This document shows, one piece after another, positions 16,529 through 19,014 of a DNA stretch of 64,000 bases (within the stretch, counting starts at the first letter, position 1; each line of letters begins with the position of its first letter). The notes beneath the pieces were generated by a model. The model did not search any database, was not told the origin of the DNA, and worked only from the letters and a program-made list of their open reading frames with translations. This stretch comes from a phage: sequence record NC_101838.1. One strand, written 5' to 3'. Made by a program: the position numbers and the translations under genes.

Positions 16529-16553
16529 AAGGGGCTTAGCCCCTTTCTTTTTG
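16529..16553 (+). terminator. intrinsic terminator closing the plus-strand array
   Basis: Hairpin aaggggcttagcccctt followed by tctttttg. Confidence 0.65.
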
Positions 16554-17161
16554 TCTGCTCTTCCCCCTACCATAAACGGCCCTACCTGGAAAGTGGAATA
16601 ATTGACGAGCCATCAATCCCACACACTGTACAAACATACATGTAAAATAGCTATTGCATAACCTTTCATTGTGTGGTAGCGGTGCTATTTTTTACCAGTT
16701 TTCCTTCCAAAATTGCACGTAATGCAGCTATTGCATAAATTTTAACCTGATGCATATCTTCAATATCTTGTCAACAAATAAAAATTCTTATAAGTCATAC
16801 ACTTATACCCCCACAAAAGCGTTCTCTACGTGAAAAATCGGGCATAACTATAGCCGCCAGATCTCAGAATTTACGTACGCTCGCCATTCTATAGCCTGCT
16901 AAGTATTTATTCCAACCATAGAATAATGGAATAGTCAATACCTGAATAAAATAATTATTCGTTTAAACTGCATAACATAAATCAGCTCAGGTGTCAACAT
17001 TTTTCGTAAACAGTCTTAAATTGTCACTGTGAGTTATCATAAACAGAGAAATCTTTAGTCGTCTAATGTTTACTGTACGTTACTATACTGACTGGAATCA
17101 TTAGATGACTAATAGAAAGATAAGAAATAATTAACGATACAATTATTTTACCTGTAACAAT

Positions 17162-17404
17162 AAGGCAACTATGCAAACGAATGGCATGGCGCGACGGAGT
17201 CGCGACATAATATAAAAGCAGTAACCATCACCCCCGTGATAGTTTGTCTGCAAACTATTAATCAGATCATAGTTGCCTTGTATTTAGTTAATCATGACAT
17301 AACAAGCAAGGCAACTATAGATCTTCTAATAGTTGCCCTGCTTTTATATTATGTCATGCTAATTATAATCAGTGCGATTATTGTCATGCAAACGAATGGC
17401 ATGG
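17162..17404. repeat. repeat-bounded non-coding element (20-bp terminal direct repeats, internal inverted repeats)
   Basis: atgcaaacgaatggcatggc at 17171-17190 and 17385-17404; AGGCAACTAT/ATAGTTGCC in alternating orientation four times; palindrome gcgcgacggagtcgcgac. Confidence 0.55.
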
Positions 17405-17466
17405 CTTATCATCTCTGTGTAAACAATCTATGCGTGAACAGTGAAACATGAAATAATAACAGTCGT

Positions 17467-17527
17467 TATTGTGTCAAGTATTCCGATTGTGTCACCATTG
17501 TGTCTAAAGTGTCATATTGTGTCAGAC
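17467..17527. repeat. five tandem TTGTGTC(A) iterons
   Basis: tattgtgtcaag, gattgtgtcacc, cattgtgtctaa, agtgtcat, tattgtgtcagac at 12-17 bp spacing. Confidence 0.55.
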
Positions 17528-18099
17528 AAGTTTTTCTCCTCTTTGTCAAGTGCTGCATGAAAAATTTACAAACTGGTATGGTAGCATTTTTGCGGACCTG
17601 TTTACATTCAGGAGTGTATGTATAATCCTTGTTGTGTGGGCGTTTATACGTCTGGACGGTCAGAAGTCTGCAGGTTAATATCTAATCTATTGGCTGCTAA
17701 CTATATCCCACACAAATGATAAGAAATATAATTGTTATATGCGTAAACTGTAACTCATGTTATCAATCCCTGTATGGATCGCCAGTGGTGCGCATAATGG
17801 GTATTATGTTAAATTGCCCGTAATGATAAAGGTTCTCACAATGATAGGTATTCTCATTCACCCTCACAAAATAGATTGCAAATGTTGTGCCACTGTGTGA
17901 ACGGCCTCACCTATTAATTTGCCTCACTGCCTCGATATTTGAGAATTATTATAAGAATGAGAAGTATTCCCATTCCGTCCGCCTGGCAGCACTCCTGTAG
18001 GTCCTGCAAGGACTCTAGCTTTCAGCTAGACCCTTCGGGCCTCCCTGTAGGTCAGGTCAAAATCGGGGTAGAATTGGGCCTATTCAGATATTTCTGGCT

Positions 18100-18335
18100 G
18101 ACTCTTCAGGTCTGTGTGGGAAAAGCCAACCTCTCCGGCGGGGCAGGGGGATATCTGCGGGAAAATTGCAGGTCAATTAAAAAATTTACGTGGTATATGA
18201 AGCGCTCTTCAGGTAAGGCATGTATTATGGGATGAAACCCTCTTCAGGCAATGATATTTGTGGGTGTGATATTTGCTGGAAAGCCAGATATGACGGGACT
18301 CCCGGCGGGGCAGGGGTGGTACAGACAGGGAAAAT
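18100..18335. repeat. composite direct repeats (CTCTTCAGG ... CCGGCGGGGCAGGGG ... GGGAAAAT)
   Basis: Unit at 18100-18166 repeated at 18238-18335; extra CTCTTCAGG copies at about 18203 and 18654. Confidence 0.55.
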
Positions 18336-19014
18336 ATGAAGGATGTGGTTGGGTAGATTGATCAGACAGGTAGAGTATGGAATATGTTACAAGTATGTTA
18401 AATATGGAGGTTGAATATCTGTAGGATTTGTGTGTAAAATCAAAGACTTAAGTGGTGTTGTGGTATTTTCTATAAATAATTCAAGTTTAATAGGCAATAT
18501 TTGTCTCTATCCGCTTTGTGTGGTAAACAGATTCAGATTAGATTGGTTTACAAGTGTATACATAATATACAAATTAAAGATACAAGAAACCCCCCCTCCC
18601 CCCTTCGGCTACCATTCACCTTTTCCTCTGACTGGTACTTAAACACTTATTCAGACTCTTCAGGTTATCACCCATATATCATATGGCAGTGACTGGTGTC
18701 CTCCGGCCCCTCTTTCGTCACCCGTCCGCTTCGCCATGCTAATGCCATAGCTAATGGTTCGGTTGTTCACCCTGTTCACTCAGGTGTATCTCTATACCCC
18801 TTCAAACCGAAGAGAACAGAAAACCCGAATTACTCGGTAAAAGAAAAGAGAAGAACTTAATTTTATCAGGATAGGCAAGAATGTCAAGGTATGACTGCTC
18901 ACTAAACAAGCAAACAGTCATGTGTGGGAGGTAAGTGATTGTGGTGGTAGGAAATTTAGTTGAAAGATGTGTTATAGGTGCTTCCAGCACTTTAGCCGGG
19001 CAGCTAATTGTGTG

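Follow-up and report, generated by a model that had tools for sequence, protein, structure and literature searches.

The stretch of phage DNA analysed here (NC_101838.1; 64,000 nucleotides, hereafter the window) contains between positions 16550 and 19010 a 2.5-kb region devoid of coding signature, placed between a plus-strand and a minus-strand block of genes. This region very probably corresponds to the two physical ends of the chromosome of a Vequintavirus, brought together in the assembly, in other words the concatemer junction and the termini of a packaging system of the T7 type, based on a direct terminal repeat (DTR). The 459-bp DTR lies in the middle of the region, and its limits are designated border A, between 17983 and 17984, and border B, between 17524 and 17525. 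Along its whole length, the stretch 16500-19050 has 90-95% identity to approximately 120 phage records, all of them belonging to Vequintavirus, the genus of the rV5-like myophages of E. coli (about 137 kb), and a sensitive blastn search with the region produced no match outside this genus. The alignment used below comprises the window and 13 relatives with 3-kb flanks (14 sequences).

The position of the repeat and its exact borders can be observed directly in close relatives. In the Gotham record (MT682716), two identical copies are annotated as repeat_region at 1-459 and 136567-137025, and they map to window positions 17983 to 17525. HdK5 (MK373780), which comes from a laboratory other than that of Gotham, begins and finishes with exactly the same 459 bp and has the same two end nucleotides. 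On a larger scale, at least 12 records produced by several laboratories break at 17525 or 17983, and the span between these two breakpoints amounts to 459 bp. Eight of these records open or close at 17525 (Gotham, ECP2303, YN3, Aya, Pr121LW, HdK5, EdH4 and ECP2309), and four start at 17983 (bov10K2, bov22_2, bov11CS3 and bov25_3), each of these with a second match at its other end. Two properties of T7-type termini can be recognized: the same sequence is found at both genome ends in the close relatives Gotham and HdK5, whose borders are identical to those of the window, and the ends are fixed and non-permuted, 12 records opening or closing at exactly one of the two positions. Published lengths of the terminal repeat are 459 bp (PMC7471380) and 458 bp (PMC6563267). 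In Gotham, HdK5 and EdH4 (MK327930), the terminal repeats occupy the same locus at approximately 90-95% identity, with the same 459-bp repeat, the same border nucleotides, and non-coding flanks and outward-facing terminal gene blocks as in the window. These phages differ from the window in that the repeat of the latter is single and located in mid-sequence, and in the copy numbers of the border arrays and the length of the C tract. The locus is thus already known and annotated in near-identical phages, and is an ordinary element of a known kind.

The mechanism of T7-type DTRs has been described, and the landing of a DTR in mid-contig is a frequent outcome of assembly for such phages (PMC10438801). 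The repeat is apparently single in the window because its two copies were collapsed by the assembly. Two terminal gene blocks that are transcribed outward look convergent because the assembly kept one copy of the repeat. The earlier note on this DNA had described two converging blocks. Their end points were correctly placed, since the plus-strand array does stop at a terminator-like element near 16.55 kb (a hairpin and T run following gene 16091-16510) and the minus-strand block does finish at 19.0 kb with gene 19015-19230, but the convergence itself was produced by the assembly, which is collapsed or permuted, and the map has to be corrected: each block runs out to an end of the chromosome. 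The suggestion of a packaging site made in the same note is strongly supported, as the DTR of Vequintavirus virion DNA maps here.

According to this interpretation, virion DNA would be a linear, non-permuted molecule that begins and ends with the same 459 bp. In replicating concatemers, the region would constitute the concatemer junction, terminase would cut at borders A and B, and packaging would duplicate the repeat, as it does in phages of the T7 type. The non-coding DNA present on each side of the DTR, approximately 1 kb, would carry cis-acting signals for packaging and transcription. The hairpin 16529-16545 would stop the incoming transcripts of the plus-strand genes, and a conserved host-type promoter would drive transcription toward the junction. 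In practical terms, the position of the DTR indicates where the genome should be opened and annotated, and the identity of the region as chromosome ends explains why 2.5 kb were left empty or mis-annotated in many rV5-like records. The rV5-like phages are widely used as candidates for therapy and biocontrol, and defined ends and packaging signals bear on the risk of generalised transduction as well as on engineering.

The absence of a coding signal is also a direct observation. Variable sites were counted per codon position on the 14-sequence alignment for every open reading frame (ORF) of at least 30 aa. All 27 ORFs within 16550-19010 lack codon periodicity (third-position share 0-0.52, median ~0.33), whereas in most flanking genes the frame is intact and third positions account for 0.65-0.88 of the variable sites. 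Most of these ORFs are interrupted in the 13 aligned relatives, no match was obtained for any of the 27 in Pfam and PHROGs, and the curated records of rV5, FV3, JeffSchatz and A6-1 have no gene annotated in this stretch. That small protein-coding genes have been overlooked here is hardly credible, and this explanation was rejected on the basis of the codon-position test, Pfam and PHROGs. It could find some support in the short 'hypothetical proteins' scattered over the region in some GenBank records, but these automated annotations disagree with one another in location and strand; as for the few ORFs that are intact in 13/13 relatives, they are so because the DNA is highly conserved. The earlier note had seen no convincing ORF in this region and had pointed to ORFs conserved in relatives as the observation that would contradict it. 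The codon test in 13 relatives gave no coding signature, in agreement with that view.

A comparable organization can be observed in other genera. In the Klebsiella phage KPP-1 (Mydovirus), the DTR lies inside approximately 1.8 kb located between convergent blocks, in which two short ORFs are annotated. It measures 514 bp and was classified as 'T7-type' by PhageTerm, with an approximately two-fold coverage of the repeat and pile-ups of read starts at the borders (PMC9862379). Phage DP, also a Mydovirus, has an annotated 514-bp repeat with exactly the borders of KPP-1. The Mydovirus region in turn shows 70-77% identity to a convergent gap of 2.27 kb, devoid of annotation, in the Salmonella phage PVP-SE1, and to other Seunavirus genomes. 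The cross-genus link was made via the published coordinates of the KPP-1 DTR and blastn from KPP-1. Locating the homologous locus through the conserved 101-aa regulator gene (20639-20944) was tried and abandoned, this gene not being found beside the termini in Seunavirus, Certrevirus and TH18.

Outside short islands, the Vequintavirus flanks gave no BLAST alignment to the Mydovirus/Seunavirus locus. Despite these non-aligning flanks, the border sequences are kept across the genera, with GTGCT..^GRCGGAC at border A and CTTGACARRGAG..GA.AA..TGT^T at border B (^ marks the cut), and two islands internal to the DTR, ATTTAACATAAnACnCnTTATnCGCAC and TCCGCAA...TTTGTAAATTT, are invariant in all three. 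Judged from their sequence, the termini of PVP-SE1 (NC_016071) are predicted at ~117219 (GACGGACAA) and ~117739 (...AAATTGTGTT). KPP-1, DP and PVP-SE1 share with the window the convergent-looking blocks, 1.8-2.3 kb without genes and a DTR in mid-gap, as well as the border sequences, the DTR islands, two families of motifs and a promoter-like site oriented toward the DTR. They are unlike the window in the length of the DTR (514 bp in KPP-1 and DP, ~521 bp in PVP-SE1), in the arrangement of the GACACWAT motif, which forms inverted pairs 300-600 bp from the border in KPP-1 and PVP-SE1 and not a direct array at the border, and in their C/G-rich tract, which lies on the opposite strand and folds into a hairpin.

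The two motif families are found outside the borders. CCTGAAGWG, on the border A side, is present in four copies in the window (127-681 bp from the border), in four copies in PVP-SE1 (174-554 bp), and in KPP-1 in one copy at 317 bp and two at ~1.3 kb. GACACWAT, on the border B side, is present in four copies at 2-50 bp in the window, two at 312-504 bp in KPP-1 and three at 305-608 bp in PVP-SE1, that is, within 2-610 bp overall. For both families, the side and the strand relative to the DTR are constant in Vequintavirus, Mydovirus and Seunavirus, with ~0.005-0.04 copies expected by chance per flank. Four of the five copies of ATTGTGTC in the window sit in the array 17466-17524 (p = 1e-5), the copy number of which varies among phages, and the last unit of this array, ATTGTGTCA, ends exactly at the border B cut in a small dyad, TGTC-A^GACA. 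The border A cut is likewise within a dyad, GCC^T-GGC. The ATTGTGTC array is a candidate recognition array for the cut. More broadly, by analogy with the small-terminase binding repeats found beside the lambda cos nick site and with the short-repeat arrays adjoining the terminal repeats of T7, the CCTGAAGWG and GACACWAT families and the border-abutting arrays may be binding sites of the packaging machinery, either the small terminase or a partner.

In phage T7, short-repeat arrays (SRL and SRR) adjoin each terminal repeat on its inner side, a promoter, phiOR, reads toward the junction, and the packaging signals of T3 and T7 (pacB) depend on transcription. The T7/T3 concatemer junction resembles the present region by its short exact DTR and its fixed ends. 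It differs from it in several respects: the window belongs to a myovirus of 137 kb for which no phage RNA polymerase is known, its two terminal blocks read outward, approximately 1 kb of non-coding DNA is present on each side, and the two systems have no sequence similarity. The cross-genus conservation of the cut sites, the two motif families and an invariant block led by a promoter (see below) appear to be undescribed in the literature searched. The border sequences, the motif families and this block provide candidates that are cheap to test for the packaging or replication signals of the Vequintavirinae.

Table 1. Features of the chromosome-end region and of the genes next to it (window coordinates; ^ marks the cut)
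Feature	Position	Strand	Remarks
Last gene of the plus-strand block	16091-16510	+	139 aa; third-position share 0.76; ORF intact in 10/13 relatives
Intrinsic-terminator-like hairpin and T run	16529-16553 (hairpin 16529-16545)	+	AAGGGGCTTAGCCCCTT TCTTTTTGTC; closes the plus-strand block
AT-rich conserved non-coding flank	16554-17154		Identity to 13 relatives 0.87-0.94; no coding signature
36-nt direct repeat	16631-16666 / 16708-16743		Core GCTATTGCATAA
Hairpin with 14-bp arms	17056-17069 / 17099-17112		Fold z -3.9 for 17040-17159
Compound palindrome	17155-17405		Single-stranded DNA fold z = -8.85
Perfect 20-nt direct repeats bounding the palindrome	17171-17190 / 17386-17405		ATGCAAACGAATGGCATGGC
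Perfect 18-nt inverted repeat inside the palindrome	17204-17221 / 17338-17355		
ATAGTTGCC, four copies	within 17155-17405		Alternating orientation
15-bp-period array	17411-17445 (periodic core 17411-17440)	+	Core GTAAACA or GTGAACA; Tandem Repeats Finder
ATTGTGTC(A) array	17466-17524 (four copies at 17468-17516)	+	GACACWAT on the minus strand; 4-5 units
Border B	17524/17525		Window CTTGACAAAGAGGAGAAAAACTTGTC^TGACAC; Mydovirus CTTGACAAGGAGAGAGAATTGTGTT^TAGCAA; PVP-SE1 CTTGACAGGGAGGGAAAATTGTGTT^TAGCAA
Direct terminal repeat	17525-17983		459 bp; single copy, in mid-region
Border A	17983/17984		Window, reverse strand ..GTGCTGCCA^GGCGGACGG; Mydovirus ..GGTGCTA^GACGGACAG; PVP-SE1 ..TGTGCTA^GACGGACAA (predicted)
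Hypervariable zone	17984-18080		CTCCTGTAGGTC-type units, indels among phages; identity 0.74-0.78, gaps 13-19%
Motif zone	18096-18320	-	CCTGAAGWG (CTCTTCAGG on the plus strand) at 18102, 18205, 18240; further copy at 18656
CCGGCGGGGCAGGGG, two copies	18135, 18302		Inside the 18096-18320 motif zone
AT-rich, plus-strand C-poor zone	18340-18589		3 C per 50 nt; 26-36% GC; conservation drops in some relatives
C7TC6 tract	18590-18603	+	G6AG7 on the minus strand
Near-invariant ORF-less block	18604-18853	-	Purine/G-rich on the minus strand; no coding signature
Near-consensus sigma-70 promoter, extended -10	18887-18860	-	TTGACA-N16-TGaTAAAAT; 11/12 matches plus TG; points toward the DTR
Last gene of the minus-strand block	19015-19230	-	71 aa; third-position share 0.69; intact in 13/13 relatives

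The earlier note had called the region repeat-dense, with at least three repeat systems. The repeats are real and local, and 34 repeated 11-mer pairs were counted against a median of 5 in windows of equal size, only 14 out of 247 such windows scoring as high. The enrichment of single k-mers is modest, the best value being p = 1e-5 before correction over ~2,000 k-mers. The comparison with related genomes that the note had proposed yields a pattern of conservation that is directly observed: the non-coding DNA is conserved on a par with the neighboring genes (0.87-0.98), with the exception of two hypervariable zones, one immediately outside each border. Four copies of the 8-mer GTGTGGGA are present in the region (eight in the whole window), at 16617 and 17706 on the minus strand in the left half and at 18114 and 18922 on the plus strand in the right half; its enrichment is not significant after multiple-test correction.

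On the border B side, the compound palindrome varies among phages. Phage FV3 (NC_019517) has a clean deletion of 17191-17385 between the 20-nt repeats, one copy of which is kept, while 117 other records retain the segment. FV3 being viable without 17191-17385, the palindrome is dispensable, and this argues against a role as the sole origin or pac site. The FV3 deletion has the signature of a repeat-mediated deletion or of the excision of a small inserted element. The palindrome is also polymorphic elsewhere, with a 33-bp insert at ~17300 in rV5, A147 and C9, and with alternative GC-rich hairpin inserts of 40-60 bp at ~17358 in most relatives but not in the window. The 15-bp-period array comprises 2-3 units in the window and many more in rV5 and Murica. 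On the border A side, the motif zone contains a 17-mer in common with KPP-1.

Further from border A, the promoter and the block that it precedes are highly conserved. The promoter hexamers are invariant in 13 genomes. In a divergent relative from IMG/VR (L021), they are kept while the spacer is changed in sequence and lengthened to 18 nt, a combination that is the footprint expected of a real promoter. This relative was obtained by searching IMG/VR with the neighboring 71-aa protein, a search that returned three loci only, one of them usefully divergent. Identity of the downstream block is at least 97% across the 117 full Vequintavirus records, and it reaches 98-100% in L021, as opposed to 50-86% for the adjacent gene. 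Read on the minus strand, this G-rich block ends at G6AG7 and is followed by a U-rich, AT-rich zone in which conservation drops in some relatives. The C7TC6 tract reported in the earlier note is present at 18590-18603, and its length is variable among phages (C6TC5 in 11/14 relatives' sequences, including Gotham). Promoter-like sites aimed at the DTR on the border A side are also present in KPP-1 and PVP-SE1. Host mimicry was considered for 18080-18960 and rejected, this segment having no similarity to any complete E. coli genome.

The earlier note had also proposed an origin of replication or a non-coding RNA (ncRNA) locus, both of which are compatible with chromosome termini. That the region contains a replication origin is unlikely, its anatomy alone being suggestive. 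Such an origin would reside either in the palindrome 17155-17405, which is iteron-like by its four ATAGTTGCC sites of alternating orientation and folds strongly as single-stranded DNA, or in an R-loop system assembled from the promoter 18887-18860, the G-rich transcript, the G6AG7 tract and the AT-rich zone 18340-18589. The conservation of this promoter, its lack of any downstream ORF, and an RNA-sense strand that is G-rich and then enters an AT-rich zone would suit the latter. The viability of FV3 shows, however, that the palindrome is not an essential sole origin, and no initiator protein or DnaA-box cluster was identified. The cumulative GC skew turns in the region, but this is explained by the switch of gene strand: in rV5, a skew change at the homologous position was tied to the direction of transcription and no origin was defined (PMC3606486). 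A strand-specific G-quadruplex/R-loop model also loses weight from the comparison with KPP-1 and PVP-SE1, in which the C/G tract is found on the other strand with respect to the DTR and forms an ordinary hairpin.

An ncRNA locus, that is, an early ORF-less regulatory RNA of ~265 nt transcribed from the minus strand between ~18853 and ~18590, is likewise improbable. The near-consensus promoter with its extended -10, whose hexamers persist on either side of a spacer of changing sequence and length, the 250 nt downstream, which are more conserved than the adjacent genes, and the fall of conservation after the G tract and U run in some relatives all speak for it. Against it, no match to any Rfam family was found at E <= 1 on either strand of 15500-20000, a scan for tRNA and tmRNA found none in the region, and no block homologous to 18604-18853 was found in other genera or in E. 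coli. The full putative transcript folds no better than shuffled sequences (z -1.0), and its 5' part only weakly (z -2.4). Among sliding 120-nt folds, strong z-scores are confined to palindromes that are symmetric on both strands (17040-17400), with weaker minus-strand signals at 18720-18839, the only one to reach z -3.55, and at 18880-18999. Long-range pairing between the G tract and the C tract was not better than in shuffled controls. The literature searched contained neither a transcriptome nor an origin mapping for Vequintavirinae.

A resemblance with the human mitochondrial CSBII deserves mention here. CSBII contains a length-polymorphic tract of the G6AG8 type, at which an RNA/DNA G-quadruplex stops transcription and leaves an R-loop primer, and it acts on T7 RNA polymerase (PMC10447254, PMC3488243). 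The minus strand of the window shows a similar order, a strong promoter and the putative G-rich transcript preceding G6AG7 and then a U-rich run, and here too the length of the tract varies. The resemblance is one of form without homology; unlike CSBII, the phage DNA downstream is G-poor in the RNA sense, and related genera carry the tract on the other strand. By extension of this analogy, 18590-18887 might be an autonomous cis element, in which a promoter for the host RNA polymerase directed toward the genome end would produce an ORF-less, G-rich RNA of ~265 nt with a CSBII-like 3' end at G6AG7-U. This RNA or its R-loop would prime replication beside the DTR or be needed for the processing of the junction by terminase, much as transcription is needed for packaging in T3 and T7. 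The CCTGAAGWG and GACACWAT arrays would supply the other half of this packaging signal, to which proteins bind. This composite model is quite unlikely.

Some observations weigh against identifying the region with packaged chromosome ends. The termini of this particular isolate are deduced by homology, its borders being identical to those of HdK5 and Gotham, and the borders of PVP-SE1 are predicted from sequence alone. The motif families are candidate binding sites, and the enrichment of single motifs within the window is modest once corrected for multiple tests. Finally, a simple cut-site model leaves unexplained the near-invariance of 18604-18853, a block situated 620-870 bp from the cut.

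With regard to the neighboring genes, the last gene of the plus-strand block (16091-16510) is accessory: it is missing from three of the 13 aligned relatives (JeffSchatz, FV3 and Alma), with a gap fraction of ~0.2. It adjoins the chromosome end, and a 'Rel homology domain' was noted in it by the annotators of Murica. The hairpin 16529-16553 that follows it carries a terminator annotation in phages Alma, Murica, Gotham and HdK5. On the other side, the annotated 70-aa ORF 19352-19564 (minus strand) is intact in 13/13 relatives, but the third-position share of its variable sites, 41%, is far below that of its neighbors, and its coding status is doubtful.

Some of the records matching the region are titled 'Campylobacter phage' and yet are Vequintavirus. 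Approximately 19 GenBank records of the MG0656xx series, unannotated and flagged UNVERIFIED, bear this title with C. jejuni given as host, and are 85-94% identical to this region; they are probably contaminant or mislabelled isolates.

Elsewhere in the window, a 49-nt intergenic element is present in three copies between early genes, at 7845-7893, 8466-8514 and 8800-8848, two of which are 98% identical. It consists of a hairpin, GATGGCC...GGCCATC, in which a TTGACA hexamer is embedded, and looks like a combined terminator/promoter stem-loop, recalling the promoter-stem-loop repeats of T4-type phages. Another repeat pair, of 38 nt, is located at 8073 and 9929. Seven tRNA genes (Arg, Tyr, Ser, Thr, Met, Pro) are clustered at 62103-62915. 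The cluster includes a 99-nt ARAGORN call at 62572-62670 with a four-base anticodon (atcc) and no assigned amino-acid identity, which may be a degenerate, intron-containing or frameshift-suppressor-like tRNA.

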